Of a stretch of DNA of 64,000 nt, positions 28,076 to 64,000 are shown one piece after another. Position 1 is the first letter of the stretch. Each line of letters begins with the position of its first letter. The notes below the pieces were generated by a model. That model was not told where the DNA came from. It did not search any database and saw only the letters and a program-made list of their open reading frames with translations. The DNA comes from a virus, in IMG/VR virus record IMGVR_UViG_3300031456_000002, positions 1 through 64,000 of that record; one strand, 5' to 3'. The position numbers and the translations under genes are program-made.

Positions 28076-28080
28076 TTTCA

Positions 28081-28200
28081 TACCTTAGTGCTACTTATCA
28101 CTTCCATCATGCAAAAATCATTTTTACATATAATTCCCGGCATAGTCGCATCCTACCTTCATGGTGGCGGTGATAAGTCTTCTATGTCCGGGATTTATGT
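28081..28200 (+). promoter_or_regulatory. promoter plus structured leader RNA of the HNH gene
   Basis: TACCTTAG at 28081. Segment 28093-28111 is complementary to 28160-28178, which lies in the loop of hairpin 28135-28145/28182-28193. Confidence 0.55.
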
Positions 28201-28203
28201 TTT

Positions 28204-29636: not shown

Positions 29637-29639
29637 CAA

Positions 29640-30656: not shown

Positions 30657-30952
30657 TGGAAGTAAAAAGTTATAGTGTTTATGGTATTCCCCCTCCGTCG
30701 AGAGAAGAAATTATTATCATGCAGCATAGGCTGTTTATGTATCTGGAAGCATTAATCAGAGCAGAACGATTGAACCCAGAAAGAGATTATGAAGGAACGA
30801 GAGAAGTGGGATTATTGAAGCGTATCGCTACGTCTGATACTACGGTAGAGCAAAGAATGACTCTTACTCTTTTGCTTTTGGGAAATGAACCACAAGAAAC
30901 AGAAGATGATGAAGATATAGAAGACTTCGAAGATGAAGCCGGGGAAGAATAA
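30656..30952 (+). CDS. hypothetical protein with acidic tail
   Basis: 98-aa ORF. Confidence 0.55.
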   Translation: MEVKSYSVYGIPPPSREEIIIMQHRLFMYLEALIRAERLNPERDYEGTREVGLLKRIATSDTTVEQRMTLTLLLLGNEPQETEDDEDIEDFEDEAGEE

Positions 30953-30975
30953 TTAAAACAATAAAATAAAAATAG

Positions 30976-31791
30976 ATGGAAATAAAAAACAGCTTTCTGC
31001 ATTCAGGAAATTCCGGAGATTGCGTTGGGGCAGTCCCAGCTATGAGAGAATTTTATCGTAAAACAGGAATTAAGCCAATTCTTTATCTTAGAAAAAACGT
31101 AGAAGCGTGGTATTATGATGGAGCCGTTCATCCCGTTAAAAACCCAGAAACCGGGAAAAATGTGATGCTAAATGATGCCATGATTGCGATGCTTACTCCT
31201 TTATTAAAAGCGCAGCCGTTCTTTGAAGATGTAAAAACATGGGTAGATGAAGAGATAGGTTGCGATTTAGACCAAATCAGAGAAACATATGTGGGCCTTC
31301 CTGGATTGAGTTTGAATCGCTGGTATTTCTATGTATATCCAGACTTAGCCTGTGACCTTTCAAAGCCTTGGTTGGAAGTACCGGATGCAGAGAAGGATTT
31401 CGCCAACGGTAAAGTTATCATTACCCGGACAGAGCGCTACACGAATCCGCATATTGATTACTCCTTTCTGAAGCCATTTGAGGATGAATTGGTATTTAGC
31501 GGAACAATGAGGGAGTACAATGTATTCTGCATGACCTACGACCTGAATATTAAAAAGCTAACCATAACCAACTTTTTGGAATTAGCACAGGCCATAAAAC
31601 AAAGTCGGTTTCATATTACGAACCAAACCATGGCCAACCAAATTTCACAAGGAATTTTTCATCCTTCTATATTGGAGGTGTGTGGCTTTGCTCCTAACTG
31701 CATTCAGATAGGGGAAGATCGTTATGACTTCATGGCGCAGGAAGGGTTAAAATACTATTTTGATTTATTGTACAAAAAAACCGCTCAATAG
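30976..31791 (+). CDS. GT-B/GT9 (heptosyltransferase-like) glycosyltransferase
   Basis: FLHSGNSGDCV N-terminus and NFLELAQAIKQSRFHITNQT C-terminal motif. Confidence 0.65.
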   Translation: MEIKNSFLHSGNSGDCVGAVPAMREFYRKTGIKPILYLRKNVEAWYYDGAVHPVKNPETGKNVMLNDAMIAMLTPLLKAQPFFEDVKTWVDEEIGCDLDQIRETYVGLPGLSLNRWYFYVYPDLACDLSKPWLEVPDAEKDFANGKVIITRTERYTNPHIDYSFLKPFEDELVFSGTMREYNVFCMTYDLNIKKLTITNFLELAQAIKQSRFHITNQTMANQISQGIFHPSILEVCGFAPNCIQIGEDRYDFMAQEGLKYYFDLLYKKTAQ

Positions 31792-32376: not shown

Positions 32377-33945
32377 ATGAACAAGAAGACGCTTTATGGA
32401 GCCGAAGCAAGGGCTAAGTTATTGTCAGGAGTTAAGAAAATCGCAGCAGCGGTCAAGGTGACCTTAGGCCCGATGGGTCGGAACGTTCTTATATCGCAAA
32501 GCATGGTTATTGATTATGGGGTGCATAATCTTCCCATCCATGTTACGAAAGACGGATATACGACTACTAGGGCGTTTGAGATCAATGATGATCCTTTTGA
32601 ACAAGCTGGCGTGTTAATGATAAAAGAAGCGGCTCAGAAATCAGTAGATCAGGCTGGTGACGGCACAACAACAACAGTGGTGTTAGCTGAGGCTATTGTT
32701 GAAAAGGCAATCGAAGCCATTGTCGCAGGAGGTAATCCAGTCGAGTTGAAGCGCAGTATTGATAAGGGGGTGCAGGAGGTAGTAGAACAGCTTAAGGGAA
32801 TGGCCATTCCTATTAAAGGGAATATTGATCGTATCCGACAAATCGCGACCATTTCGGCTAACAACGATTCGGCAATGGGGGAATTAATAGCAGATGCCTT
32901 TAGTAAAATAGGAGAAGAAGGGGTTATTGATCTTGAAAAAGGGCAATCAGTGAATACAGAAATAAGAATTGCCGATGGCTACAAATGGGATCAAAGTTGG
33001 GTAAGTCCTTATTTCATTAATAATAAGGAGAAGCAAATATGCGAATTCGAAAACCCTATTATTCTATTGTATGATAAAATGATAAAACATCATACTCAGA
33101 TTATAAGAGCCCTGGAGTTGATTCAGAAAAGCGGCAGACCGCTATTGATAGTTTGCGAAGATTCTATTGAAGAAGGGTTATCAACATTAGCGGTTAATAA
33201 TCTACAAGGACGATTCAAGATATGTGTAGTAAAATCCCCCGAGTTCAATGAAAAAAGAAGAGAAGCGATGGAGGATATTGCATTGATTACCGGCGCTACC
33301 TATATCAGCGATACGAAAGGCATTGATATAAAGGAAATGGAATTCGACCATTTTGGGCATGCAAAGAAGGTATTGGTAACGAAAGAAGAAACTGTTATTA
33401 TCGGAGGCGCGGGGAATAAGGAGGACTTGGAAAACCTTCTGAATGAACTGAAGATAAATATGGTTCAAGCAAAGAATGAAGACGAAAGTGCGCCTATCGA
33501 AAGAAGGATAGCGAAGTTAACAGGGGGAGTAGCTGTTATTTCAGTTGGAGCGGCTACGGAAACTGAAATGAAAGAGAAACTGGATAGATTTGATGATGCC
33601 GTAAGGGCTGTTAAAGCTGCATTGAGTGAAGGATTTATCGTTGGTGGCGGCACAGCCTTTTTACGGGTAAAAACTTCAAGTGATATAATAAATAGCATAC
33701 TTCGTATTCCTCTATGGCAAATTTGTAGCAACGCTGGCAAAGAAAGTTCCGCTGATCGTATTATACATGATGTAGAATCTTTCAAAAACAATGTTGGGTA
33801 TAACGCCAAAACTGATCAAATCGTAGACTTGATTGATGCTGGGGTTATTGACCCGGCTAAAGTGTTGAGATGTGCTATTACTAATGCAGCTTCGAGCGCA
33901 GGTATGATCATTACGACTGAGGCTCTTATTTGTGACACTATGTAA
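32377..33945 (+). CDS. groEL: chaperonin GroEL
   Basis: VKVTLGPMGRNV, VTKDG, AGDGTTT, AKLTGGVAVI and GVIDPAKV. Confidence 0.95.
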   Translation: MNKKTLYGAEARAKLLSGVKKIAAAVKVTLGPMGRNVLISQSMVIDYGVHNLPIHVTKDGYTTTRAFEINDDPFEQAGVLMIKEAAQKSVDQAGDGTTTTVVLAEAIVEKAIEAIVAGGNPVELKRSIDKGVQEVVEQLKGMAIPIKGNIDRIRQIATISANNDSAMGELIADAFSKIGEEGVIDLEKGQSVNTEIRIADGYKWDQSWVSPYFINNKEKQICEFENPIILLYDKMIKHHTQIIRALELIQKSGRPLLIVCEDSIEEGLSTLAVNNLQGRFKICVVKSPEFNEKRREAMEDIALITGATYISDTKGIDIKEMEFDHFGHAKKVLVTKEETVIIGGAGNKEDLENLLNELKINMVQAKNEDESAPIERRIAKLTGGVAVISVGAATETEMKEKLDRFDDAVRAVKAALSEGFIVGGGTAFLRVKTSSDIINSILRIPLWQICSNAGKESSADRIIHDVESFKNNVGYNAKTDQIVDLIDAGVIDPAKVLRCAITNAASSAGMIITTEALICDTM

Positions 33946-33954
33946 TTTAAAATT

Positions 33955-34221
33955 ATGCCAATTCAAGCAACCAATAATTTTGTATTTGTAACGAGAGAAA
34001 AGGCTGAATCCGAAAAGTCTGGTATTTATATTCCAGATCAAGGCCGTGAAAAGCCAAACGAGGGAATAATTGTTACTATTGGAGATTTAGTGCAGGATAA
34101 AAAAGTAAAGGCGTCTAAAAATAAGAAATGTCTTTTTTTTAAAGGGGCTGGCTTTACTGTGCCATATCAAGGAGTGGAATACTTGGTATTAACTTCTGAT
34201 CAAATTATTGCCATTCTATGA
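33955..34221 (+). CDS. groES: co-chaperonin GroES
   Basis: SEKSGIYIPD...EKPNEGIIVTIG...GVEYLVLTSDQIIAIL, directly after groEL. Confidence 0.85.
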   Translation: MPIQATNNFVFVTREKAESEKSGIYIPDQGREKPNEGIIVTIGDLVQDKKVKASKNKKCLFFKGAGFTVPYQGVEYLVLTSDQIIAIL

Positions 34222-46924: not shown

Positions 46925-47119
46925 ATGGCAATATGTAGTTGTGGTAAAACGTGCGATGAATTATATTCTTACTTTGATAAAGTGTCAAAGTATAGAATAA
47001 CATGCTGTGAACAATGTGCAATGGATAATAAGATTGACGATGAAGAAAAATACGAAAAGCATTTGTACAAAAATCTGAATCAAGAACAAAGTAAAACACC
47101 AGAACCGGATGCCTCCTGA
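46925..47119 (+). CDS. small Zn-finger protein
   Basis: CSCGKTC...CCEQC. Confidence 0.45.
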   Translation: MAICSCGKTCDELYSYFDKVSKYRITCCEQCAMDNKIDDEEKYEKHLYKNLNQEQSKTPEPDAS

Positions 47120-50100
47120 AATTAAAATGTTAGCTGGCACATTGAATTTAGATGATCCATTGGAGTCATTGGGTAAGGCATTCCATCGAGACGGAAGGAA
47201 CATCGAGTTTGACGGGACACCTCCCAACAGGAGATGTAAGATAAAGCCTGGTAATATTGCTGTGCCAAATGTCTTATTGCCAGCTATAGGGGTTAATAAA
47301 ACGATCAGCGAAAGGTATGATTCCCTAACCAAAAGGATTTATTTTTTCAATTATAATTCTGGCGGCAAGCATGGTATTTATTTATATAATACAATTCTAG
47401 GTACATTTCAGCGATTAGTCGAAGTAGGGATAAATACAATAGGCGATCCATTAGCATTTACAGCAGAAAGTTATACCAATAACGATATTATTAATGCCGA
47501 TAGTGTACAAGGCGACATCCTTTATTATCTTGATTCGTTAGGAAGGCCATCAAAGATTAATGTAGCCCGCGCATTAGCTGCCGGCTACGGAAGTATACAG
47601 CGTTCATTTTTGGATGTAGCAAAAGAGCCAGCGGATATCCCTCCTTGTGTGATTTATGAACGCGATCCAGCCAATACCGTAAATAACCAAAGAAAGAAAT
47701 TATTCAGATACAAAGTTCGGTGGGGATTTGATGATAATGATAAATCAGTAACAAGCTCTCAAAGTGAATTGCCGCTACCTCTTGATCCATTTGATCAGGC
47801 AGTAGATGCTGATCCAACATATAATTGCAGAACGGCTATTGTTTATCAAACTGGCCCATCTAATGTAAAAAAGATAGAATTGTTAGCTGCCGTTAGTATG
47901 GGTAATGTATTTTCTGATTTCTTTTTAATACAGTCTATTGATAAATCGGTATCAGGCATCCCAGACAATGATGTAGCGACATTTTTATTCTACAATGATC
48001 AGGCATACAATTATATTGATGTTCAGGAAAGTATACAATTGTTTGATTATGTTCCATTAGCGGCTAGGGCTCAGACTTTATTAAATGGTAATGTGGTATC
48101 TTATGCGAACATCACAGAAGGATACCCTAATTTAACCAATTTCACATTTTCATCAAATACCAGCAATTTATCACAAAGTCAAATACTTTACTATAGCGGC
48201 ATCTATTTTACTAAGCTAGTGGCGAGTCAAGGAGGCCAAAGCGGATTCGGAAGTGGTAATATCCATATAGTGATAAGAGGGTATGTTTTTTCATTATCAT
48301 TCTCATTGGACACGTATGTGGTTTATATGACAGATGGAACCAACATCTCATATACGATAAATACAGGAGATGATGCAGCGGCTGTAATTGAGGGGTTGCG
48401 TGTAGATGCATTATCAAAGGGATATACAATTATAAGTACGAATAACAATGATTTATATGTATTTAAGACAGGTATAAGTCTGGCTAGGGCTCGAATAATC
48501 TCAGATTATACATACAATTCTTTAGGCAACAACGCCTATGCAACAGATGATTGGTCTAGTAAGCATGGATACGGGTTGGTCTATTTTGATCAGAAAGGTA
48601 GAACCAATGGAGTAGTTTATACAAGCGGATTTTCGGTGACGTCAATAGCATTTAATGAAGCCGATCCCTTCCAGCCATACATACCCAAGTATTTGGCTAT
48701 GATTTATCATCAACCCCCAGATTGGGCATATTATGTTCAGTGGACTCGCACTAAGGATTTATCAAAAAGCAAAATCCAACAGTGGATAACAGATAGAACC
48801 TTTAAAGATACTTCTGCCGTTTCTGGATTGTTAAAATATGCTTATGTAAGTATTGAGTCATTAAATGCCTTCGTAAAGGCTAATCCAGGCTCTCCTTTGG
48901 GGTATGGATTTTCGCCGGGAGATCGGATAAAATTCATGAAGCGATACAATGCAGACGGTACTACAGCTAATTTATATGGGAATACAAAAGATTTTGAGGT
49001 TGTAGCTTCATTAACAAATCCAACTATTAATGGTGAGATAAAATCAGGTCAGTTCATAAAATTCGTATTGCCAACTACTGACGGGTCATTTGATTTCGGA
49101 ACTACTGGATTTGCTAATTATTTAATTGAATTATACACTCCGGCACAATCTGTAGCAGGAGGATTAGATGTTTATTTTGAATTTGGTGAAAGATATGCAA
49201 TAGGAAATCCTACTGCTTCAAATCGTTTCCACCAAGGAATGATGCAAAATCAAACAGCAGATTATGCAACACCAGCCACGTATGAATTTTTTAAGGGGGA
49301 TTATTATATTAAATTAAGGTCCATCCAAACCGGGAATGTTTATTCATTTAATATATTGAATGGGAATATGACAGCCGGCAGATTTTTATTCGGATTAACA
49401 TTTGTAGATTCCACTTACGTTGACCCTGGTATTACTGCCCAAAGCGTGGCGATGGCGAATATTAGCGGTAATACTCCCAGTGGCGGTATTAGTCCGGGAA
49501 GCGACACGAGGTGGTTTTTGAAATCAATACCAAATAATACATTCAGGATACGAGGAACTATTAGTATAAATTTCACGACTGATGTAACCGGTGATGTATG
49601 GCGAATATTCATATTGAACCGATTCAATGAACGACAATATTTAGTCAACAACTTTAGTGCAGGAACAGCAGGAGTATATACATTTACAATAGATGCTATT
49701 ACTACATTGGAAGATGATAGGATATTTTTAATCGCGGAGGGAGGCGAGCGACCGCTTAATGTACTATCCAATGAAATAACTTTCTCTATTGATCACGTCA
49801 TTGCGCAAAAAATGATTGATCAGAATTTCTCCGATTATTTTGCAAGTGCGGTTAATTCAAACGGAAGATCATTTATTTATGATCAAAACGCCAATCAGGT
49901 TACTTATCCTGTAATGTACAGATGGGGATTAGCATATCAGACAAATACCAATATCAATAAAACAAATAGATTTTATCCTACAAATTTTGATGAGGCCAAT
50001 AGAAGACATGGCGCAATAATGAAGATGGCTCAATTAGGCAATGAATTGATATTTTTCATGGAACGAAAGATTGGGCATACAGGTGTTTTCCAAAAATTCA

Positions 50101-51008
50101 TAACCGATAGTGGTGGCAATACGAGTTTAATAACAACTGACTCCATCATAACAAGCAATAATGTTCAATATTATAAGGGAGAAATAGGTTGCGGAAATCA
50201 GCCTACGGGAGTAATTGAAAGCGATTTTGTATTCTATGGCGTAGACCCAGTAAAGAATATAATTTGGAGACTATCGCTAGATGGCATTACTGATTTGACG
50301 GAATTATATAAAACAAAAACATGGGTATCTGCAAATTTGCCTAAGTATCTCGCCCCCGGAACTTACGCATTTGGTGGCAATCAAAAAGTTCTTGGAACGT
50401 ATCATCTAAGACCCGATAATATAGGAGAATATCTGATATTGGCGCAAGGCACAGCACTTGTTGCAGGAGAAACGCTTGCATTCGAAGAGAAATACAATTC
50501 ATTCACTAGTAAAGTAGATATTGATTGTGATTGTATAGTAAGTGCAGAGAATGTTTTGTATGCCTTTAAAAATGGAGCACTGTGGAAGCAAAGCATAGCC
50601 AATGCGTATGCGGTATTCTTTAATACTCAATATGCGGCAAGTATTACGTTGGTGTTTAACGATTCAGAGCCGGTTAAGAAGTTATTTAATGCGCTGGCAT
50701 ATCAATCGAATCAGACTTGGTTCGCAGGTACAAAGGGCGACGTAAAGACAAATACAGTAAACAGCCAAACGTTCTTACAGCAAGAGAGTTTGATCATGAA
50801 TCAGGATTTTGATGTGTTGGAGAATCCCAATCGTTTCGCGGCTTTTAATCGAAATCAAAATAGCAGTACAGATCCAATCCTAAGTTTGTGGGAGGGGGAA
50901 TACCTTTGCGGGAACTACATAATCGTTAAATTATCAATAACTTACAATGGATTCTCTTATTTATTTTCACCAGCGGTGACCTGGAAGCCAGACCCACGAA
51001 ACTTTTAA
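47109..51008 (+). CDS. tail nozzle/stabilization protein (P22 gp10/crAss muzzle-like)
   Basis: 1299-aa beta-rich protein. GTLNLDD N-terminus and a C-terminal propeller-like region (GCGNQP, VKKLFNAL). Confidence 0.7.
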   Translation: MPPEIKMLAGTLNLDDPLESLGKAFHRDGRNIEFDGTPPNRRCKIKPGNIAVPNVLLPAIGVNKTISERYDSLTKRIYFFNYNSGGKHGIYLYNTILGTFQRLVEVGINTIGDPLAFTAESYTNNDIINADSVQGDILYYLDSLGRPSKINVARALAAGYGSIQRSFLDVAKEPADIPPCVIYERDPANTVNNQRKKLFRYKVRWGFDDNDKSVTSSQSELPLPLDPFDQAVDADPTYNCRTAIVYQTGPSNVKKIELLAAVSMGNVFSDFFLIQSIDKSVSGIPDNDVATFLFYNDQAYNYIDVQESIQLFDYVPLAARAQTLLNGNVVSYANITEGYPNLTNFTFSSNTSNLSQSQILYYSGIYFTKLVASQGGQSGFGSGNIHIVIRGYVFSLSFSLDTYVVYMTDGTNISYTINTGDDAAAVIEGLRVDALSKGYTIISTNNNDLYVFKTGISLARARIISDYTYNSLGNNAYATDDWSSKHGYGLVYFDQKGRTNGVVYTSGFSVTSIAFNEADPFQPYIPKYLAMIYHQPPDWAYYVQWTRTKDLSKSKIQQWITDRTFKDTSAVSGLLKYAYVSIESLNAFVKANPGSPLGYGFSPGDRIKFMKRYNADGTTANLYGNTKDFEVVASLTNPTINGEIKSGQFIKFVLPTTDGSFDFGTTGFANYLIELYTPAQSVAGGLDVYFEFGERYAIGNPTASNRFHQGMMQNQTADYATPATYEFFKGDYYIKLRSIQTGNVYSFNILNGNMTAGRFLFGLTFVDSTYVDPGITAQSVAMANISGNTPSGGISPGSDTRWFLKSIPNNTFRIRGTISINFTTDVTGDVWRIFILNRFNERQYLVNNFSAGTAGVYTFTIDAITTLEDDRIFLIAEGGERPLNVLSNEITFSIDHVIAQKMIDQNFSDYFASAVNSNGRSFIYDQNANQVTYPVMYRWGLAYQTNTNINKTNRFYPTNFDEANRRHGAIMKMAQLGNELIFFMERKIGHTGVFQKFITDSGGNTSLITTDSIITSNNVQYYKGEIGCGNQPTGVIESDFVFYGVDPVKNIIWRLSLDGITDLTELYKTKTWVSANLPKYLAPGTYAFGGNQKVLGTYHLRPDNIGEYLILAQGTALVAGETLAFEEKYNSFTSKVDIDCDCIVSAENVLYAFKNGALWKQSIANAYAVFFNTQYAASITLVFNDSEPVKKLFNALAYQSNQTWFAGTKGDVKTNTVNSQTFLQQESLIMNQDFDVLENPNRFAAFNRNQNSSTDPILSLWEGEYLCGNYIIVKLSITYNGFSYLFSPAVTWKPDPRNF

Positions 51009-52718: not shown

Positions 52719-54262
52719 TGGCAAAAGGATACTCACAGCCATACGGCGATGCCTTTATAGTGGAGACACCAACACTTGATGCATTAAGTAAGCAATTATA
52801 TGCCGAACAGAAGCAAAGGCAAATGATCCAATATCAGGAGAATAAGGCATTAGATGAAGGTATGCGGAAGGAATTTGCCAATGTTCGGTCGGTTGATACC
52901 CCAGAAGTGGTAAACGCCTATAATCAATACAAGACGATAAAGAAACAATTGTACTTCGATAAGAAACTACAAAAAGACCCAATTGCATTTAATAAACGCC
53001 AGCAAGAGGCGAATGCTGCATTACAGAAAACGTATGAGATAATAAATGGCAGTAGCGAGATAAAGGAATTGGGGAAAACTCTTTTGCAAGAGAGGTTTAA
53101 AAACCCAGACGATATGACTGAAGATTCTGGCCAAAGAATAGGTACATTAATGAATACCCCATATAGTCAGGTAAAAAGTCATCCTCAATATGGAGATTTG
53201 ACCAATATGGATTCTTATAAAGATCAAGGACCAAATTATGATTTCGGGGAGGCGCTTCATAAGGCAGCAGGAACACCAAAAGAAATATTGGGCAAATCAA
53301 TACCAATAGATAAAGGGCTTCAAACTCAAACATCCGTCTATCAATTTGGAAATACGCCGGCCCAAGTGTATGATTATTTATTGAACACCACGGCAGTAAA
53401 TAAAGCAGGACGCAGTGCAGCCAAGCTATGGAATAAATTGCCGGTATCGCAAATCCAGTCTACAATTGAAAAATACAAGCAAATCCCACAAGAAAAATGG
53501 GAGCGCATGGGAATAGACAAACCACAAGATTTAGGCAATTTCTCAGATAACAAAGCTGATAATTATGCGAAATATCTAGCAATGAATTATGCCATTAATT
53601 CAGAACCAAAAGAAGGGAAGCCGATTATAAAGGACAACAAATCGGCAGTAATGGCGGCTCAGGAAGCTAAAGACAGGAGAATGGCAGCCCTTAATCATAG
53701 GTATAGTGAATCTGATATAAGACTGAGAGATGCATTGAAAAATAAAGGTGAAGATGAGCAGAATGATATTATTGATGAAAAGTATGCCGAAGTAAAACAA
53801 GATGCACTAAAAAATCCATTACAATATAAGCCAGCAAAGGGTAGCTCCTATAGCCAATATAGCATTAAGGTAACACAGCCCATGAGAAATATGTTTGGGG
53901 TTCAAGATTCAAATGGAAAATGGATTTATCCCGATGATGTAAGATATTCCACGGACTTAAAATATGTGGTGCCAGTATTCTACCAACACTATGTTGAAAC
54001 AGATAAAAATGGGAAAGCCACAAACAAAAGATTGCCCCAGCCAATATTAGATGCAAAAGGGAATGCGGAAGTTGATCCTACTTTAAGCAAACCAATACTA
54101 GAAAGTGAATTTAAAGAGCGATGGAAAAAGGAATTACTTGGTGTTCAGGGATATAATAAATCATTAAAAGGAAAGAAAGCGCCAGGATCATCCAAGCCAA
54201 AGCAGGTAATTCAAAATGGGCATACATATACACTCAATGAAGCAACAGGCCAATACGAATGA
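52718..54262 (+). CDS. internal virion (ejection) protein
   Basis: 514-aa helical protein in the ejection-gene position. Confidence 0.55.
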   Translation: MAKGYSQPYGDAFIVETPTLDALSKQLYAEQKQRQMIQYQENKALDEGMRKEFANVRSVDTPEVVNAYNQYKTIKKQLYFDKKLQKDPIAFNKRQQEANAALQKTYEIINGSSEIKELGKTLLQERFKNPDDMTEDSGQRIGTLMNTPYSQVKSHPQYGDLTNMDSYKDQGPNYDFGEALHKAAGTPKEILGKSIPIDKGLQTQTSVYQFGNTPAQVYDYLLNTTAVNKAGRSAAKLWNKLPVSQIQSTIEKYKQIPQEKWERMGIDKPQDLGNFSDNKADNYAKYLAMNYAINSEPKEGKPIIKDNKSAVMAAQEAKDRRMAALNHRYSESDIRLRDALKNKGEDEQNDIIDEKYAEVKQDALKNPLQYKPAKGSSYSQYSIKVTQPMRNMFGVQDSNGKWIYPDDVRYSTDLKYVVPVFYQHYVETDKNGKATNKRLPQPILDAKGNAEVDPTLSKPILESEFKERWKKELLGVQGYNKSLKGKKAPGSSKPKQVIQNGHTYTLNEATGQYE

Positions 54263-57200
54263 GTACTAAAACATTCCCATCAACAGGCTCAAAGCCTAAA
54301 TTTGATCCCAATGTTTCATATGAAGCAGTTGAGCAAGAGCCTGTGCCCAAAGGAAAGAAACCGGCTTTTAATCCCAATGCTAAATTCGAAGCAGTTACTA
54401 TGGAAGTGCCGCCTGAACAACCGAAGTCAGCGCCACAACAGCCAGCATTTAAGCCAATGACCGATTGGTTAAATATCCCACAACAAGAGCATCAGCCAAT
54501 GGCAGTAGAGAATGCTGTTCCTATCGATGACCATACCATAAAGACTAGTCAAGCAAGTCAAAGAGTGCAAAATCACTTAGGCGATATTGATAATAGCATT
54601 CACAACCTGATTTACGATAAGAAAAAAGACGTAAAAGGAAGATTAGTTAGTCAGCAACTGGGATTAAATCCGTCTGAATCAGGGCCAATTAATCCACAGG
54701 CGCAGCAGTTGGAAAGCAAATTAAGGCAAGATATTCCAGTAGCGCCACAAGAGGTAGAAGAATTTAAAGTTGGCATGAATGAAAATCCTGTTATGCTTCG
54801 CCAGGGATTAGCACAAAAAGCCAAGGATTTGACTAAGGTGAATCCGACAGAGGCGAGTAAGTTAAAGGGGGATATTTACAGATTAGACCGGCAAGCAAAT
54901 CCAGAAAAAGAACAAAATATTTCTCAAAACATAGATAAAATTAACAGCGGCGAATATGACTATGACATAGTGAATGGTCGGTTAATTAAACCATTGGGAT
55001 TTTTTGGAAGTGTGGCAAATGCTTTTAAAGAAAAGGGGAAAGCATATGATGACTATGATGTTTATCAGTCCGGAGATGAGAAAAAAATAATGGACAGGAT
55101 CAGGCAGCGATTAAATGATGATCCAGACAAAGCCACTCCTATTCCTATCGGTGAATTGGGAGAGGCTGGGGCGATGCTAGGCGGCCAGCCATTAAAGCCA
55201 TTGATAGGGGGCGCTATTGCGGGAGTATTTACCGAGGGGTTGGGAGCGCCAGCAGCGGCAGCGGCTATATCTGCCCCTGAAATGTATAAATTAACATTCG
55301 GAAGTGCATTGCCGGGTAATTATGCGGCACTCAAAAAGCAAAACCCAGAATTGCCAGATAGTGAAGTTCTACAAAAGGCTATTGATTTAACTGACAAGCA
55401 AGCAAATACGGATGCATTAAGCGGGGCTGCTATGGGCGCAATAGGCGCTAAGGCTGCATTAAAGCCGGCAGCATCTGCATTATTGCAGAAGTCGGTGAAA
55501 AGCGCATTGAAGCAAATAGGGGAAACGGTAGCGATTGAGGGAATTGGTGGCGGTGCAATTGGAGCCGGAGGTCAATTAGTCAAAAACTTGATGGCACAAA
55601 AAGCCGGGATTCCAGTTGACGAAAGCGAAGGGATGGCGCAGCAATTGGTGGGTGGGGCTTTTATGACACTGGGGGTAGCGGTTGCCGGTAGGATGGGGGC
55701 TTTATTGAAACCATCCACGTATAATAAGCTGCTTCATGGATTATCAAAACTTCCAGAAGAAGCAATTTCAAGCGAATTAGCAAAGGCGCAGGAGGTGGGC
55801 GCATTAACACCAGAGCAAGCACAAAAAGTACAGAACGATATATCTGAACAGAAAAAGATCGATGCCTCTATTCGTGGCGATGTGCCTGAATCAGATAGGG
55901 TAAAAATAGCAGAAAAGATAAAGGAGACGGCAGCCTTGGATAAGGAATTGGAAACAGCCCATAAGGCATATCATCCTGAAATAAAAGAACAAATAAAAAA
56001 GCTGGATGAAGATATTGTAAATACATCTAAGGGATCAGAACGTGGTGAATTACAGAAGTTGGTAGATAGAGAGCACAAGTCAGGCAAGATCGAAGGCTTT
56101 GTAACGGAAGCATTAAGGGATGCAACCGAAAAAGAGCTTCAAGGTTATTTTAAAGAGATATCAGAACAGGCGCATGATCCTAATTCAGAAGCTATAACTA
56201 TCGCAACGTTTGGAGAAGATATAGTAAATAAGGCAAAAGAGCTATATCCGCAAGAAGTTCCAAAAGAATCAAAAATATCAGTAATTCAACCTGGAGAAAT
56301 AAAACATCCTGAAACTATAACTATAAAACCACAAGAGAATGAGTCCCTTCGCGAGCGAATCCCAGAGGCGGCTGCTATGGATGAAACATCCGGAAGTAGC
56401 CCGGAAATGGGCCAACGAGTACCCGAACCAGGGGAAGCTACCAATGCACAAGAAGGACAGCGACCACCCCAAGAAGAAAGTGCGCCTGGTGGTCAAGAAG
56501 GGATAGGAGGCGGTAAAGGTGGCCCTCCTGCTGGGAAAGTAGTAAATATGGCAGATTATGGAGAGGGAGGAAAGGAGCTAGATAAACTTGCCAATAATAT
56601 TCCAGATAGCGGGAAGGTGGCAGAATACATGAGTAAGGAAACAATTGAAAAATATACGGGAGAAACACCCGCTAATGATCAATCAAGAGGGGTTCAGGAA
56701 TTAGAAATAGCCCTTAATCATGGAGAAAAAATTATCGAAAAAGCAAAACAGATTTTTGGGAAAGATTATGCCGAAAAGACTATCGAATACATAGATAATA
56801 GCACAGCCGGAGTTTCCAATAAAGCTCTTATGTATGTGAGTTTGGAAAACGCATTAGGTAGAGAGAAATTAGAGAACCCGACGAGGGCCGCAGAAATCAC
56901 TAAGCAACAAGCATTGGTATATGCAAAATCGCAAGCATTTGCTAGGGAAAATTCACTTGCATTAAATTATCAAAAGCTAAGAAGGATTGCCAAAGTAGGG
57001 TATGATATTGACAAGGTTACTGAAAGCTTCTTTTCTCCTGAAGAAAGAGAGGGGCGAAAAAATATAAGTAAAGCAATAGAGGCTGACCCGGATATGATTA
57101 ATAAGCAAGCAGAAGCAGTTGAAACTGGCAAAATTGCGCCTGATGTAGAAAAAGCCATTAAGGAAGGAGTTGCAAAAGAGATAGAAAATATATATAACAA

Positions 57201-60075
57201 ACTGCCAAAAGAAAAGAAAACGATAGCAGATAAGGCTATTGCCGCGCTTGATAAAATTCACGATAAATTAAGAGGGAAAACGTATGAGTCAACATTAGGG
57301 ATTCCAATAGCCATCATTGATGGCGGCGTTCTTACTATCAGAAATGCTATTAAAGCGGGAGTTAAGATTGCGGATGCGGTCGAAATGGGGATTGCTAAAA
57401 TAAAAGAAAAATACAAAGATTGGGCTAAAGAAGATGAATTTAGAAAAGATGTAATTAGTGGACTAAGAGAGCAGGGAATTGAAGATACCCCTATAGCTAA
57501 AACGAGACAAGAAAGATTAGCCGAGGCAGAGGGGAGTTTACAAAAAAGGATAGATGCTATTCGAGAAGAAATAATAACAGGAGAGAGAGAGGCTAAGAAT
57601 AAAAGGGATAAACTACAAAGCAAGAAACTAGATCAGCTTAAGGAGCAGAAAAAAACACTAGAAGCATTCAGAGATAAATACCTGCCAAAGGGCGATGATC
57701 CTTATACAAATGAAAAAACGGCTAAAACAATCGAAACAAAACTTATAAATGAAAATATCGAGTTAAACAGACAGATAGCAAAAGGCGAAAAGGACAGAGT
57801 AGAAAACAAGGTTACCATAGAAAGCGAATCGATTGATAAATTAAAAGCAGAGCGAGATGTAAGGAAAGAAATCCTAGAAGTGCTTGATCCTACCCCTAAA
57901 GACTATGTGAAAAACGCATTAATTCAACAAGGGCTTGGTAGAGAGAAAGTTATAAAGGGGGAAAAGAAACAAATACTAGATTGGAAAAAATTGGCAGGGG
58001 CTGCCGGAACTGTTTCTAAGATAAGCGAAAATGTCGGTAAGGTATTAGAAAGTGATGGTTTTAGTGAATCACAATTAGAGAGGATAAAAGATTCATTTAT
58101 CCAAGAGTATGTGGACTTACGGGCTTCTGTTATCGAAAAAGCTCAAAATGAATTGGCTAAGAGAAATAAAGAAACAGTTACGCAAGAGCAAAAATCGGCT
58201 GCTAAAAAGTTAGCGGAACTATATACTTATGGGCTGTTCGATTCTCAGCCAGATGTATTTGAAAATATTCTTAATAAGGCACTTGGTTCCAAAGTAAGCG
58301 AAAAGGGGTTCAATGAAGCGAGAGAAATAGCAAAAGGGATGGAAACATTATATTCCAGTTCGTTTCAGGGAGTTAAACTAAATGATATATCTGCGAAAGC
58401 TGCGATTGAACAACTGGAAAACAAGATGCGGCTCTTATTGGTTAGAGAAACGAAGGGACAGGGTAATTATAATTTCAGGGCAGCAAATATAGTTAGGAAC
58501 TATTTTGATTTACAGCAAACTATGGTTCTTAATAACTTGAAACAAGCGGTGGAAAATCCATTATCTGGATTTCAGCAGGAATTAATTGAAAAAATAGGAG
58601 GAATGATTGGTAAAGAAAGGATAGGGACTCCGGAAATGGGAGCACAGCGGAGGGCATTAATGAAGGATATTTATAAAGACATGGTATTAAATGGTTCCAT
58701 AGGATACGGAAAGACGGAGACGGCATTCGTAAATAGAACGCATGTTGATGATCATATTAATAAATTATCAGACGGCAAATTGTATCATGGTGTTATGTCT
58801 GTTTTAAGTGGCAAAGCAACACTGAATGCTGCCGATGCTATGTATAAGGCATCAATTACTGAAAAGAAATTTGCAACAAATCTGATAAAAATACTAACGA
58901 ATGAAACTAATCCTAACCGGATGAGTCCGGGGGACGCAATTAATTTTGTGTCCGAAAAATTGACAGGCCAAACATTAAAAGATGCTAAAGTATCCGCACG
59001 CGAAATAATAGAAAAAATAAATAAAGACGCAGGAAGGGAATTGATACCTACAACGCCAGAGTCAATAAATCGTTTCGCAAATGATATTGTGAAATCGGCA
59101 TTGGAAATGGGGAATCAAATAACGACAGAACAAATTACTGCCGCATACAATGCGGCATACAAGGCGGCTGGATTGGGACTAGGACATGAGGCTAACAATA
59201 TTCTTTCTTCTACGGTTTCTGGATATACCGCTAAGCTGGAATCAAGAATTAATGATGCCATTAAGGATAAAGAATGGAATAGAGCGGCTGTGCTTACGGC
59301 TCAGTCAATCTTATTCAGGAATGTATTAAATCCGTTCGTTGGAGGGGGTACTAATTGGCTAGTGCTGAAGTTCGAAAAAACTGGGCTGGGATTAGTAACT
59401 GGGTTGGGGTATAAAATTGGCTCAAATACTAAGATTGATTTAAGCACAGAGGTGGGCATGAAAACGCTTGAAAAAAGATTATACAACCAGGCAAGAGTAA
59501 AGGATAATTACATGAGAGGTCTGGTGGGGGGCGCTGCTTCAGCTTTAACTTATTTGGCTTTTACTGGGCTGGCTAATACCGACGAATATCGCAAATGGAG
59601 AGGTAGAAACGCTTGGGCTGCAAGATATTTAGACATAATCACCCCGGAAATGTTGCTTATTCAAATGGCGGTAGAAAACAAAGCAGTTAAGAAGTACATA
59701 AGTGGCACTTTAAATAGAAATGAATCTTTTGATGCTACCGCAAAATTAATCAAGGCAGGCGAGTATGCGGTAAAAGGAGATAATGATATGGCCATGGGCG
59801 CAATAGGCGAAGCGCTGGGGGCTAAGTTGAATATCCCATTGCCTTGGCGATTAGTGAAGGACGGTCAAGTTATTTATCAGGGGATCAAAGGGCAAGACCC
59901 ATATCATGGGAATTATGCGCCATCGATTGGATTTTTAAACGGAGTGTTTCAGGGCGGCGCTATCGAATGGGTAGGACTTCGCCCCGAGGCTAATGAATCT
60001 AATGGCGCATCTGGATCAAGTGGCAAACCAGGAAAGCCCGGTAAACCATCAAAACCAGGAAAGCCGACTAAATAA
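54259..60075 (+). CDS. large internal virion (ejection) protein
   Basis: 1938 aa, helical, with Gly/Ala transmembrane-like segments and N-terminal KPxF(D/N)PN repeats. Confidence 0.65.
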   Translation: MSTKTFPSTGSKPKFDPNVSYEAVEQEPVPKGKKPAFNPNAKFEAVTMEVPPEQPKSAPQQPAFKPMTDWLNIPQQEHQPMAVENAVPIDDHTIKTSQASQRVQNHLGDIDNSIHNLIYDKKKDVKGRLVSQQLGLNPSESGPINPQAQQLESKLRQDIPVAPQEVEEFKVGMNENPVMLRQGLAQKAKDLTKVNPTEASKLKGDIYRLDRQANPEKEQNISQNIDKINSGEYDYDIVNGRLIKPLGFFGSVANAFKEKGKAYDDYDVYQSGDEKKIMDRIRQRLNDDPDKATPIPIGELGEAGAMLGGQPLKPLIGGAIAGVFTEGLGAPAAAAAISAPEMYKLTFGSALPGNYAALKKQNPELPDSEVLQKAIDLTDKQANTDALSGAAMGAIGAKAALKPAASALLQKSVKSALKQIGETVAIEGIGGGAIGAGGQLVKNLMAQKAGIPVDESEGMAQQLVGGAFMTLGVAVAGRMGALLKPSTYNKLLHGLSKLPEEAISSELAKAQEVGALTPEQAQKVQNDISEQKKIDASIRGDVPESDRVKIAEKIKETAALDKELETAHKAYHPEIKEQIKKLDEDIVNTSKGSERGELQKLVDREHKSGKIEGFVTEALRDATEKELQGYFKEISEQAHDPNSEAITIATFGEDIVNKAKELYPQEVPKESKISVIQPGEIKHPETITIKPQENESLRERIPEAAAMDETSGSSPEMGQRVPEPGEATNAQEGQRPPQEESAPGGQEGIGGGKGGPPAGKVVNMADYGEGGKELDKLANNIPDSGKVAEYMSKETIEKYTGETPANDQSRGVQELEIALNHGEKIIEKAKQIFGKDYAEKTIEYIDNSTAGVSNKALMYVSLENALGREKLENPTRAAEITKQQALVYAKSQAFARENSLALNYQKLRRIAKVGYDIDKVTESFFSPEEREGRKNISKAIEADPDMINKQAEAVETGKIAPDVEKAIKEGVAKEIENIYNKLPKEKKTIADKAIAALDKIHDKLRGKTYESTLGIPIAIIDGGVLTIRNAIKAGVKIADAVEMGIAKIKEKYKDWAKEDEFRKDVISGLREQGIEDTPIAKTRQERLAEAEGSLQKRIDAIREEIITGEREAKNKRDKLQSKKLDQLKEQKKTLEAFRDKYLPKGDDPYTNEKTAKTIETKLINENIELNRQIAKGEKDRVENKVTIESESIDKLKAERDVRKEILEVLDPTPKDYVKNALIQQGLGREKVIKGEKKQILDWKKLAGAAGTVSKISENVGKVLESDGFSESQLERIKDSFIQEYVDLRASVIEKAQNELAKRNKETVTQEQKSAAKKLAELYTYGLFDSQPDVFENILNKALGSKVSEKGFNEAREIAKGMETLYSSSFQGVKLNDISAKAAIEQLENKMRLLLVRETKGQGNYNFRAANIVRNYFDLQQTMVLNNLKQAVENPLSGFQQELIEKIGGMIGKERIGTPEMGAQRRALMKDIYKDMVLNGSIGYGKTETAFVNRTHVDDHINKLSDGKLYHGVMSVLSGKATLNAADAMYKASITEKKFATNLIKILTNETNPNRMSPGDAINFVSEKLTGQTLKDAKVSAREIIEKINKDAGRELIPTTPESINRFANDIVKSALEMGNQITTEQITAAYNAAYKAAGLGLGHEANNILSSTVSGYTAKLESRINDAIKDKEWNRAAVLTAQSILFRNVLNPFVGGGTNWLVLKFEKTGLGLVTGLGYKIGSNTKIDLSTEVGMKTLEKRLYNQARVKDNYMRGLVGGAASALTYLAFTGLANTDEYRKWRGRNAWAARYLDIITPEMLLIQMAVENKAVKKYISGTLNRNESFDATAKLIKAGEYAVKGDNDMAMGAIGEALGAKLNIPLPWRLVKDGQVIYQGIKGQDPYHGNYAPSIGFLNGVFQGGAIEWVGLRPEANESNGASGSSGKPGKPGKPSKPGKPTK

Positions 60076-60844: not shown

Positions 60845-61354
60845 ATGGCATTCAACGGGAATTTTACTGTGGCGAGCTTGATAGTTCCAGGAAGCTTCAC
60901 TATTACGGATTCGTCAACTGGGTCCGATATAAATTTAACCGGGAGGACTATAAGTTTATTCCAGGCATCAGGCGTATTGTTGGGAGGGGCCACTATTGAT
61001 TTTCCGTTATCAAGCGGCTCATCAATAACACTGAATGTATTAAACGTTGATCTCTGTTTATTGATACTTATAACGTGGCAATCATCTGCACCATTATCGC
61101 CGCCATCAACTTATAGTGCATCAGGATTATTCAACTTTGTAGGCAATTCAAGAGCTTTTGAAGATCAACAAATAGGGGCCATTCAATCAAATCCGGGAAT
61201 ACTTCAAGATACTAATTTCTACAATTCATTAGGAATTTTACAGACGGATATAGACTGTAGTATTCAAGCAGCAAGTATGGGCCAGCAATCAAGTGCCCAA
61301 GCTGCCCTTTCGCGTATTCAATCTATGATTGTTAATCAAAGCAAGTTATTCTAA
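60845..61354 (+). CDS. tail structural protein
   Basis: S/T/G-rich, FTITDSSTG motif, position in the tail region. Confidence 0.5.
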   Translation: MAFNGNFTVASLIVPGSFTITDSSTGSDINLTGRTISLFQASGVLLGGATIDFPLSSGSSITLNVLNVDLCLLILITWQSSAPLSPPSTYSASGLFNFVGNSRAFEDQQIGAIQSNPGILQDTNFYNSLGILQTDIDCSIQAASMGQQSSAQAALSRIQSMIVNQSKLF

Positions 61355-61956
61355 TGGCGTATACAGTAACCGAAATATTGCAGATAGCCAACATATGCGA
61401 ATTTTTGGCGGCTGATAATCAATCGCAGGGATATTTGTTTCGTGGGAATTATGAACGAACCGGACTTTCAAGATTGATCTATCTAGTAAAAAGTAGCGTG
61501 AATTGGCTGAATAGTTATAATCCTTCCAATAGTACTTTATTAGGGAAGGCCAATTATCTTTTTTCATTATGTCAGCCATTTGTGGGGCAAGCATTACAGA
61601 TAATAGGAAGTGGAGGAAACGGGACAATCGCTAATCCGGCAACGGGTGTTATTTCAACGATAGAAGTGGTGTATCTGGAATTTATCGTAGGGGTTACGTC
61701 TTCCCCACAGACTGTCAACGGCGAAAGTGTAACGTTGCCCGTTGATGGGGAGTCTCAGATCATTTTACCTATTCCGGACATTTTGAATAAATCCATAAGT
61801 GTCACTAAGGATAATGTTCCGCTACCCATTGCATTTAATGATAGGGAATCATTTACACCTATTTATACAACCCCCAGCGTTACAATAAGCGTCAATGTGC
61901 CATTCCAGGACGGTGATCTTTTTGTAATTCAGGGTCTTCAATATGTAACCGCATGA
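61354..61956 (+). CDS. tail structural protein (fibre adaptor-like)
   Basis: Beta-rich C-terminal domain (PFQDGD); its stop overlaps the start of the next gene. Confidence 0.5.
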   Translation: MAYTVTEILQIANICEFLAADNQSQGYLFRGNYERTGLSRLIYLVKSSVNWLNSYNPSNSTLLGKANYLFSLCQPFVGQALQIIGSGGNGTIANPATGVISTIEVVYLEFIVGVTSSPQTVNGESVTLPVDGESQIILPIPDILNKSISVTKDNVPLPIAFNDRESFTPIYTTPSVTISVNVPFQDGDLFVIQGLQYVTA

Positions 61957-64000
61957 GATATGTAATATATATAGTATTGTTTCTTTGCGTTTGCCAATGT
62001 GCTATTGGCCAAAGTAACCCATCTGGATTTCCTACACAAAACTCTACTGGATGGTTTAGACACGGCTGGGATCAATCGGATTCGGGAACTGTTTTAGCGC
62101 CACGTCTCCCTAATTTCACCCCACGGTTCCCTGGAACCACAATATTATATCAAAATGCAGGGACAGATACTTCAATCCACTATTGGACGGGTGGCAGATG
62201 GATTAAGATAAGTGCAGCAGGGACAGATACTACATCATTAAGCAATAGAATAAACCTTAAGCTAAATATTTCGGATACCATAGGCGCATGGTTAGCACAA
62301 TCTACCCGGTTAGTGGATACTATGTATCGGGTAAATGATTCTACTGTAGGATATACTATTAAGGGAAGTCCGTATACGTTTCAAATATTGGGCGGTTTTT
62401 CAGGTGGTGGCGGCGGTTCTGGTACTGTAACAAGTGTAGCCCTCTCGATGCCATCTGCATTTACGGTAACTGGATCACCAATTACAGGAGCCGGAACTTT
62501 TGCCGTAACAGGGGCTGGAACTTCATTACAATATATTCGAGGGAACGGAACATTAGCAACATTTGATACTACTGCTATACCTAATTTCTATTTAAAAGTG
62601 CGCGGTTTATTAACAGGTACATCACCAATTACATTTAGTCAAACTACAGGAGCAATTGGAATAAATAATGCCACGGCTACAGGTACAAAAGGAGCTGCCG
62701 CATTTACTGGTTCATTTTCTGACAATGGAAGTGGGTTAATAGATCTCCTTAGTCTCATAACTGCAAGTAGCTGTACTAATTGTAATTTAACATTTGACGC
62801 AAAAGGAAGAATAACGGCTGCATCAAATGGCTCGGGCGGCAGCGGTTCTTCAGATACTGCATTTAATGGGTTAACTAAAATAGCAGATACTATTCAATTA
62901 GGTGGTGCATTTACTAAAATAGATACATTAGATGCAGGCTTATTCCATCTTAAAATTACCGGAGCAAGAGTAGGAGGAGGTGTTTTGGAAGTAAATAATA
63001 CAGGATCAGATTATGCGGCAACATTTGAAAGTGCAGGGAGTAATACAATCTTAGCAACGGCCTCAACTGGGAATTATGTTGCAGATTTGTTGATGAACTC
63101 ATCATCAACAAATGATGTAGAGGCCATCTTGAAGATACGCAGGGAAAGTACATCCACTCCTGTCAATGGAATTGGGGGCGCAATAGATTATGTAACTGAA
63201 TCTACGGCAGCAACTACTACATCTAATAGATTAATATCCATTTGGACAGACGCTACTACGGGATCGCGCACATCGCAATTTGAAATTTGGGGTGTAAATA
63301 ATGCCACTACTGCAAGGAAATCGGCTATTGCAGGGAATGGTCAATGGACATGGGATGGATACCCTGCATTAACACAACAAACAGACACAACGAATATTAA
63401 GCCTATTGGGTATAATACTACAACAGGATTAATACAGCCCATGGCTAATTGGATGGGAGGTGGTGGATCAGTTGATACAGTATTTTCAACTTACGTTGCA
63501 TATGTAGATACTCTTGGAAGTGATGTAACAGGAGCTATTAATAATCCGGCAAAGCCATTTGCTACTATTAACGGCGCTCTTATTGCCACTTCATCGTTGT
63601 TCATATGTACTGTCTCAATAGGAATGGGAACGTTTAATGCCCCGGATTCAGCTAACATGAGGTCAAATATATGGTTCCGTGGTAGTGGGATGCCAGCGGC
63701 CAATGATACGGTTACTGTAAATGCATACTATAACAATACCATACAAGCCCCAACTAAACTACTTGGAGGAACAATAATAAGAGGTTCTTTTATTATTCCC
63801 TTCAATAGAGAAAACATACATTGTACAGACTTTGGTGTGGATGTAGGCTCCAATTGGGTTACTAATTTTAATTCTGGAACCGAAGTGGATGGGTTTTTAT
63901 GTGCCCAATATTTCAATCCGGCTGGGGGTCAACCATCCGCTGACGGAAAGCATCAACTGCAAATAAATACAAAACCTCGTAGAGGGATGCTATTCCAAAA
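61953..64000 (+). CDS. tail fibre/spike-like protein with N-terminal Sec signal peptide (at least 682 aa, truncated by the window; not in the ORF track)
   Basis: Open frame from ATG 61953 to the window end. Signal MRYVIYIVLFLCVCQCAIG|Q; fibre motifs GSGTVTSVALSMPSAFTVTGSPIT and LTFDAKGRITAASNG; beta-helix-entry motif YVDTLGSD...PAKPFATINGAL. Confidence 0.8.
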   Translation, partial: MRYVIYIVLFLCVCQCAIGQSNPSGFPTQNSTGWFRHGWDQSDSGTVLAPRLPNFTPRFPGTTILYQNAGTDTSIHYWTGGRWIKISAAGTDTTSLSNRINLKLNISDTIGAWLAQSTRLVDTMYRVNDSTVGYTIKGSPYTFQILGGFSGGGGGSGTVTSVALSMPSAFTVTGSPITGAGTFAVTGAGTSLQYIRGNGTLATFDTTAIPNFYLKVRGLLTGTSPITFSQTTGAIGINNATATGTKGAAAFTGSFSDNGSGLIDLLSLITASSCTNCNLTFDAKGRITAASNGSGGSGSSDTAFNGLTKIADTIQLGGAFTKIDTLDAGLFHLKITGARVGGGVLEVNNTGSDYAATFESAGSNTILATASTGNYVADLLMNSSSTNDVEAILKIRRESTSTPVNGIGGAIDYVTESTAATTTSNRLISIWTDATTGSRTSQFEIWGVNNATTARKSAIAGNGQWTWDGYPALTQQTDTTNIKPIGYNTTTGLIQPMANWMGGGGSVDTVFSTYVAYVDTLGSDVTGAINNPAKPFATINGALIATSSLFICTVSIGMGTFNAPDSANMRSNIWFRGSGMPAANDTVTVNAYYNNTIQAPTKLLGGTIIRGSFIIPFNRENIHCTDFGVDVGSNWVTNFNSGTEVDGFLCAQYFNPAGGQPSADGKHQLQINTKPRRGMLFQ

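Follow-up and report, generated by a model that had tools for sequence, protein, structure and literature searches.

The prevailing view is that the cytoplasm is where every part of a tailed phage folds and is assembled. Classical tailspikes, such as gp83 of Acinetobacter phage Solidus, TSP4 of CBA120 and the tailspike of P22, are conserved in the part next to the particle, while their enzymatic or binding parts can be exchanged; they lack a leader, and their folding takes place in the cytoplasm. Glycans are carried by virion surface proteins of mycobacteriophages, for which phage-encoded glycosyltransferases act in the cytoplasm. Outside phages, the MAT fibres of Bdellovibrio bacteriovorus are phage-fibre-like trimers with a signal peptide, a shaft and swapped C-terminal tips (PMC10769870). 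In Bacteroidota, Gln at position +1 of signal peptidase I (SPI) substrates is a phylum-specific rule, the Q-rule (PMC5837995, PMC10653852), and the known Q-rule and O-glycosylation substrates are cellular proteins (PMC5837995, PMC10653852, PMC12871550, PMC8550257). Among phages, Q-rule proteins are on record only for those of Porphyromonas, where their genes have no assigned function, and not as fibres (PMC10367356); beside these, the Hankyphage paper presents the opposite situation for the targets of diversity-generating retroelements (DGR). Our literature search, which reached few subscription journals, turned up no account of tail fibres exported by Sec, or of virions glycosylated by the host, in phages of Bacteroidota. 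Here we analyse a fibre gene at the end of the first 64 kb of the 78,380-bp IMG/VR virus record IMGVR_UViG_3300031456_000002, which is rated complete; this whole stretch of 64,000 nucleotides is referred to below as the window. The predicted protein resembles the classical tailspikes in its build and has a gp10-like domain in common with Solidus gp83 and CBA120 TSP4, but in contrast to them it carries a leader. The plan of signal peptide, shaft and exchangeable tip is also that of the MATs, which differ in being encoded by chromosomal genes of a predatory bacterium outside Bacteroidota, in being displayed on its own surface, and in having no O-glycosylation sequon system. The leader, the Gln at +1 and the enriched sequons are the features of Bacteroidota Q-rule and O-glycosylation substrates, and they are also found in other exported proteins of this phage. 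Unlike in mycobacteriophages, the route of glycosylation here would be en bloc O-glycosylation by the host in the periplasm after Sec export.

The open reading frame (ORF), initially annotated from position 61953 as running off the window, ends in the full record at genome position 65465 and encodes 1170 amino acids (aa). Its proposed hydrophobic signal followed by Gln was borne out, because the protein starts with a leader of the SPI type with predicted cleavage at A-I-G/Q. A word-indexed search returned 339 relatives, and the homologue statistics given here refer to the 120 of these that were listed. A leader with the same n-, h- and c-region build and with Gln at +1 was present in 115 of the 120, with a median length of 18 residues, so that the conserved signal among homologues, which the initial annotation had suggested looking for, was indeed there. 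The residue at −1 was A, S or G in 113 of these leaders and that at −3 was A or V in 90, while at least one K or R was found in the n-region of all 115. The five exceptions retain an end of the type ...KAQ or ...KSQ and look like proteins with starts probably miscalled inside the leader. When fibre aa 1-153 were searched exhaustively with HMMER, 507 hits were obtained, counted as representatives of 50% identity clusters at E<=1e-3, and nearly all of these aligned from residue 1-8 of both proteins. In three alignments Gln20 was invariant, while the hydrophobic core was conserved in character only. The invariant Gln20 and the small residues at −3 and −1, together with a freely varying core, argue for a cleaved signal, unlike what would be expected of a structural helix. 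The AlphaFold2 model represented the leader as a lone helix (aa 2-16/19). A separate search with aa 520-1075 found 12 further proteins which carry that part on unrelated N-termini, and all 12 start with a leader ending in Q. Hence, a genuine, conserved Sec/SPI signal with Gln at +1 is strongly supported by the sequence comparisons, and export of the predicted fibre is well supported.

The N-terminus is also correctly placed. The possibility of a true start downstream of the hydrophobic segment was checked, and no such start was found ahead of the conserved domain: there is no in-frame ATG between codons 1 and 123, and the sole earlier alternative is a TTG at codon 9, within the hydrophobic core. 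Because of this, the leader is regarded as a genuine part of the protein. Two other export classes were considered and rejected. A lipoprotein leader processed by signal peptidase II would need Cys at +1, which is absent; the family consensus ends in ...KAQ, and the three Cys residues in the fibre leader are not conserved. Type IX secretion (T9SS) cargo is marked by a Por_Secre_tail-type sorting domain, which was not found with Pfam or NCBIfam, and the C-terminus matches gp10-like tailspike domains instead. A C-x-x-C pair (SCTNC) at fibre aa 274-277 (window 62772-62783) is nearly invariant in the family, and a disulfide at this place would fit a periplasmic protein.

To assess the density of O-glycosylation sequons, the motif D-(S/T)-(A/I/L/V/M/T) was counted and compared with expected values from 20,000 shuffles. 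The hand counts made earlier for the 682 aa inside the window were all correct, with 31 Asp residues, 15 of them followed by Ser or Thr (including seven of the first eight) and 13 forming complete sequons. This compares with 2.97 +/- 1.63 expected, and none of the 20,000 shuffles reached 13. For the full 1170 aa, 13 sequons were found versus 4.77 +/- 2.06 expected (p=0.00045), and the third residue was in the allowed set for 13 of the 16 D-S/T pairs, compared with 41% expected (p=0.0014). The 120 homologues contained 1839 sequons versus 666 expected (2.76x), with z>2 in 95% of the proteins, while in the same set the control motifs E-S/T-X, N-S/T-X and the reversed motif were at 0.56x, 1.01x and 0.92x, respectively. 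The excess in the family was 8.5x in aa 1-150, 2.6x in aa 150-330, 3.0x in aa 330-600, and 1.76x beyond aa 600, where the domains are non-homologous. At the four conserved sequons D92, D108, D122 and D129 the third residue drifts within the allowed set, and in the N-terminal model these sites are located in low-confidence linkers and at strand edges.

Because the protein is S/T-rich (23% S+T), a property which the initial annotation had named as a possible source of inflated counts, the comparison with other phage proteins is important. An IMG/VR scan yielded eight true relatives and about 60 loci (L013-L076) sharing only the shaft module described below. In the shaft-sharing fibres without a leader the sequon was at 0.79x (n=57) with an S/T content of 23-27%, while leader-bearing fibres were at 2.73x. 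The contrast persisted with the broader Tannerella motif (PMC8550257), for which the values were 2.28x and 0.98x for leader-bearing and leaderless fibres, respectively. The phages that encode the leaderless shaft-sharing fibres have leaders of the type ...SFAQ/Y on other genes, which suggests that they probably infect the same phylum. As a second control all ORFs of at least 100 aa were used from the fibre genome and its eight relatives. Those with a leader or an N-terminal transmembrane segment were at 2.71x (n=39), those without a leader at 0.65x (n=158, 49,553 aa), and the fibres at 2.93x. The similarity to the leader-bearing ORFs suggests that the fibre behaves as an exported protein and not as a cytoplasmic structural one. 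The leaderless ORFs of these nine genomes are themselves depleted in the sequon (z −3.9), and a 1938-aa protein of the fibre phage contains none versus 3.7 expected. Thus, the proposed enrichment survives the shuffles, the comparison with the cytoplasmic structural proteins of the phage and that with leaderless fibres of equal or higher S/T content; the worry about composition did not hold, since it is rejected by the shuffles and by the composition-matched fibres. The O-glycosylation system acts only on non-cytoplasmic proteins and leaves its sites nearly fully occupied (PMC12871550), and engineered and foreign motifs are also glycosylated (PMC12871550; PMC8550257). Given this near-full occupancy and the acceptance of foreign motifs, an exported protein with these sites should be modified, and the glycosylation of the fibre is considered likely.

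The identity of the protein as a fibre or tailspike is supported by its position after the tail genes, its mosaic build and its modelled C-terminal gp10-like domain. No family was assigned to the fibre itself in Pfam, PHROGs or NCBIfam, and a PDB sequence search with the whole protein and with a 10-sequence profile returned no match. In the homologues the first 300-500 aa are kept and the rest is exchanged for an SGNH esterase, sialate O-acetylesterase (SASA), BNR sialidase, pectate lyase 3 or lectin. The fibre motif GTVTSVALSMP...YIRGNGTL noted in the initial annotation is real and belongs to a shaft module (aa 154-246) common to 60-odd other phage fibre genes, most of which have the classical leaderless N-terminus MIGKKINQLATELAP... 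instead. The full-length AlphaFold2 model was poor (mean predicted local distance difference test, pLDDT, of 45), and only its last 98 residues (aa 1073-1170, pLDDT above 90) were usable. This part matched the Solidus gp83 tailspike depolymerase (24qj_A) with Z 13.1 and a root-mean-square deviation of 1.6 A over 86 residues, the gp10-like domains of CBA120 TSP4 (7rej_A) with Z 12.0, and a Klebsiella phage baseplate protein with Z 11.8. A tblastn search with the C-terminal tip found tail-fibre and minor-tail genes in unrelated phages, namely in viruses of Thermocrinis, Gordonia, Halorubrum and Microcystis. A model of the N-terminal 340 aa (72 sequences) had a pLDDT of 67 and a best PDB match of Z 3.8, so that no known fold can be claimed or excluded. 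Its matches in BFVD were phage fibres. Within the conserved N-terminal domain (aa 20-153) the pLDDT was 74-89 for aa 45-90 and 120-145, and no PDB fold match of Z>=4 was found for this domain. The fold matches of the fibre model to the MATs Bd3182 and Bd1334 were weak (Z about 4). The leads from the ESM Atlas were viral but weak, all below 0.9. For aa 450-1070 the AlphaFold2 model was unfolded (pLDDT about 30), and sequence searches of Pfam, PHROGs, NCBIfam and the PDB found nothing, which leaves the proposed beta-helix entry motif unconfirmed; some homologues carry PF12708 or PF13229. Overall, the leader with Gln at +1, the sequon enrichment and the fibre or tailspike identity stood from the earlier interpretation, while the beta-helix was not confirmed. 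In another phage, of 57.7 kb (IMGVR_UViG_3300000440_000133, L013:9782-17628), four consecutive genes with Q-rule leaders encode a 1210-aa fibre with the shaft module, a 924-aa protein, a Laminin_G_3 lectin and an F5/8 type C lectin.

The closest precedent comes from phage phi18:3 (Pachyviridae, NC_021794), a cultured flavobacterial podovirus, which has terminase, portal, capsid and muzzle-type proteins in common with the fibre phage. Its adjacent genes gp085, gp086 and gp087, located just before the lysis genes, encode proteins with leaders ending in ...GYSQ/V, ...VSAQ/T and ...LNAQ/T, and in its record they are annotated, from experimental tandem mass spectrometry (MS/MS) proteomics, as virion structural protein, structural protein and tail protein, respectively. 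This annotation indicates that leader-bearing proteins occur in purified particles of a cultured podovirus; no paper commenting on these leaders was found in the literature search. The fibres of the closer cultured relatives phi38:1 and Elemovirus are leaderless, and therefore give no precedent for an exported fibre.

Taken together, we consider it somewhat probable that the gene encodes the main fibre or tailspike-type receptor-binding protein of the phage, made as a secretory precursor and maturing by a periplasmic route. The fibre would be exported by the Sec system and cut by SPI after A-I-G, before Gln20, and the exposed Gln20 would be cyclised to pyroglutamate, as in most exported Bacteroidota proteins. 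In the periplasm the general O-glycosylation system of the host would add glycans en bloc at as many as 13-15 D-(S/T)-X sites, mostly in the N-terminal third, and the protein would fold and trimerise there. Finally, the fibre would dock to fibre-less particles built in the cytoplasm, which it would meet only after the opening of the inner membrane by the holin or at lysis. Each of these steps, from cleavage, pyroglutamate formation and glycan attachment to trimerisation and late docking, is inferred from sequence features. The tailspikes of P22 and the fibres of T4 attach in vitro to finished particles or heads, and the in vitro addition of P22 tailspikes to finished heads makes late docking physically plausible. 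Incorporation of the fibre into virions is plausible; the experimental support for it, from the leader-bearing phi18:3 proteins, is indirect.

Several observations weigh against this reading. Four of the 13 sequons are located in aa 90-153, which elsewhere forms a tandem structural repeat (...DTxxLSNRINLKLNISDT...), so that some D-T-X sequences may persist for folding reasons. Eleven of the 13 sequons are D-T, while glycoproteomes slightly prefer Ser, and the C-terminal 570 aa contain no sequon versus 2.0 expected. The leader-bearing 1210-aa fibre of the 57.7-kb phage is not enriched either (four versus 4.4 expected). The phi18:3 proteins gp085-087 are not homologous to the fibre, gave no family hits and are not enriched in sequons, with one versus about three expected in each. 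Among the relatives, the identity of the fibre N-terminus does not track that of the neighbouring 169-aa and 200-aa proteins, and thus does not point to a docking partner; and the host phylum was deduced from relatives of the phage. With regard to the repeat, the leader-bearing proteins P0140, P0122, P0175 and P0203, up to 2293 aa long, contain many tandem copies of the aa 90-153 unit and 40-60 sequons each, and a related protein of 2151 aa has 22 matched stretches of this unit. Repeats of this type could be a glycan-carrying stalk or a structural repeat which merely contains D-T-X.

The same data could also be explained by a protein that is exported, and probably glycosylated, without being part of the virion, and which has its role in the periplasm, at the cell surface or once released; display on the cell had been named as an alternative in the initial annotation. 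Such a protein could be a receptor-destroying or capsule-degrading enzyme, which blocks superinfection and stops progeny from sticking to debris, or a surface fibre similar to the MAT adhesins. The leader and the sequons would suit any exported protein, and the SGNH, SASA, BNR and pectate lyase domains of the homologues are glycan-active. The MATs, which are cell-surface proteins, show the same build of a signal peptide, a conserved ~130-aa domain rich in beta structure and a mosaic fibre (PMC10769870), and the four consecutive exported fibre and lectin genes of the 57.7-kb phage are also consistent with a non-virion role. The virion of the fibre phage could then be served by its other fibre-type gene, which has no leader and encodes a Collar domain, although the 240-aa product is small for a sole receptor-binding protein. 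On balance, we regard a function outside the virion as unlikely, if a serious contender, because the gene lies inside the tail block with a tight or coupled junction in all relatives, and the conserved N-terminus, the shaft shared with leaderless virion fibres and the gp10-like tailspike domain together give the build of a particle-attached protein. Moreover, no T9SS sorting domain or lipobox was detected that would carry the protein beyond the periplasm, no relatives were found in 185,579 bacterial species genomes, and the leader-bearing proteins of phi18:3 do reach virions.

It is improbable that the hydrophobic N-terminus is instead retained as a membrane anchor or structural helix, with the fibre remaining cytoplasmic or tethered to the inner membrane and the D-T-X excess arising from the structural repeat. 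Such an explanation would account for the part of the sequon excess that falls in the tandemly repeated unit and for the predominance of Thr over Ser, and uncleaved-looking signal anchors are indeed found in the 117-aa protein encoded downstream and in the collar protein of the relative L011. It is countered by the conservation of the small −3 and −1 residues and of Gln at +1 next to a core that is free to vary, by the variation of the third sequon residue within the allowed set at conserved sites, and by the enrichment, which extends outside the repeat and to unrelated small exported proteins, while leaderless fibres and cytoplasmic proteins lack it. Still further from the data is an artefact, in which a wrong start or a chance hydrophobic stretch is combined with sequons arising from the S/T-rich composition. 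Apart from the 23% S+T content nothing favours it, and it was tested and rejected, given that there is no alternative start ahead of the conserved domain, that the leader is kept in hundreds of homologues, and that the shuffles and composition-matched fibres reject a composition effect.

The fibre gene and its surroundings are listed in the table. The translational coupling (ATGA) proposed for the junction with the previous tail gene was confirmed, as the ATG of the fibre overlaps the TGA stop codon of the 200-aa gene, and in 8/8 relatives the two genes likewise overlap by 4 nt or are 1-9 nt apart. The order of the giant protein, the 169-aa and 200-aa proteins, the fibre and the lysis genes was likewise kept in 8/8 relatives. 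No leader is present on the candidate endolysin (GH19-like, genome 69286-69885), implying a holin of the hole-forming type. In a BLASTP comparison the 1938-aa giant protein showed no similarity to phi18:3 gp123 (1935 aa), which is called a virion protein by MS/MS; the giant protein terminates in a GKPGKPGKPSKPGKPTK tail. Directly 3′ of the fibre gene is the gene of the 117-aa protein with an uncleaved-looking signal anchor (genome 65472-65825, L002:5472-5825), which shows no similarity to the fibre. The leaderless 240-aa Phage Tail Collar (PF07484) protein is encoded 3 nt beyond it (genome 65829-66551, L002:5829-6551). In the relative L011 (L011:13491-13970) a single 159-aa protein consists of a signal anchor and a Collar domain, with a 46% match to aa 70-240 of the 240-aa protein. 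It is thus possible that a second protein of the fibre type also faces the periplasm, or that the anchor protein serves there as a chaperone of the fibre.

Table. Positions of the fibre gene, its segments and the neighbouring virion-related genes in the window
Feature	Position	Strand	Remark
Fibre gene, first 682 of 1170 codons in window	61953..64000	+	ends at genome 65465, past the window
Signal peptide, aa 1-19: n-region M-R, 15-residue hydrophobic core, c-region A-I-G	61953..62009	+	build kept in 115/120 homologues
Gln20 codon (CAA), predicted +1 of mature protein	62010..62012	+	invariant in three alignments; Q-rule
Conserved N-terminal domain, aa 20-153, small beta units, family signature	62010..62411	+	507 cluster representatives, E<=1e-3
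Four conserved sequons, D92-T-T, D108-T-I, D122-T-M, D129-S-T	62226..62345	+	kept in 103, 98, 77 and 102 of 120 homologues
Shaft module, aa 154-246 (GTVTSV...YIRGNGTL)	62412..62690	+	L013-L076 match only here
Nine more sequons, aa 205, 301, 312, 324, 478, 508, 519, 565, 585	62565..63713	+	sequence count
200-aa tail-module gene, without leader or sequon	61354..61956	+	stop overlaps fibre start; immediately upstream in 8/8 relatives
169-aa tail-module gene	60845..61354	+	syntenic in 8/8 relatives
1938-aa giant virion-type protein ahead of the fibre block	54259..60075	+	0/100 Asp in a sequon
1299-aa structural protein, crassvirus muzzle C-terminal domain	47109..51008	+	PF25729, E 2.5e-10, 41 bits vs cutoff 27

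The terminase, portal, capsid and three more structural proteins of the phage have distant matches, and these are only to Flavobacterium (Elemovirus) and Cellulophaga (phi38:1, phi18:3) phages. The matches of the muzzle-type protein are confined to the same two groups, with the 1299-aa protein matching phi18:3 gp114 and gp115, and its muzzle domain marks the predicted particle as that of a crAss-like phage or a flavobacterial podovirus. The PF25729 domain also ties the flavobacterial-type podovirus group to the tail architecture of Crassvirales. Based on the hosts of these structural-gene relatives and on the Q-rule leaders, a host from Bacteroidota, probably flavobacterial or related, is a reasonable inference. 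A prophage-based assignment is impossible, because no fibre relative was found in the species genomes scanned, and the TAnnTTTG promoter motif was of no use for this purpose, as it was not above chance genome-wide (75 versus 97 expected). The phage encodes a GroEL and GroES pair (window 32377-34221), as do Elemovirus and Cellulophaga phage phi38:1. Among unassigned genes at window 27431-31791 there is a cluster with a class I methyltransferase (PF13489) and a glycosyltransferase of family 2 (PF00535, barely over the cutoff). Its targets could be lipid-linked glycans of the host or DNA, and it might be relevant to the glycan that reaches the fibre.

Beyond this phage, we tentatively propose, with somewhat less confidence than we would need to call it probable, that a large group of tailed Bacteroidota phages, with hundreds of fibre clusters in several lineages including crAss-like ones, builds its receptor-binding fibres outside the cytoplasm, as proteins that are Sec-exported, pyroglutamate-capped, coated with host O-glycans and joined to the particle after holin opening. 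The idea is directly testable in cultured systems, for example in Cellulophaga phage phi18:3 or in a Flavobacterium host. Such fibres would misfold or lack their modification if expressed in the cytoplasm of E. coli, and both host-range prediction and phage engineering for Bacteroidota must allow for the leader. If the proposal is true, the two-compartment assembly, unknown for Caudoviricetes, would make the periplasm a second site of virion morphogenesis, and the timing of lysis would become part of this process. The virions would then bear host-type glycans on the very organ of host recognition, which could affect the stability of the fibre, its resistance to proteases and its self-adsorption to host glycans; and in the case of gut crAss-like phages, the virion glycans could affect recognition by animal immune systems.

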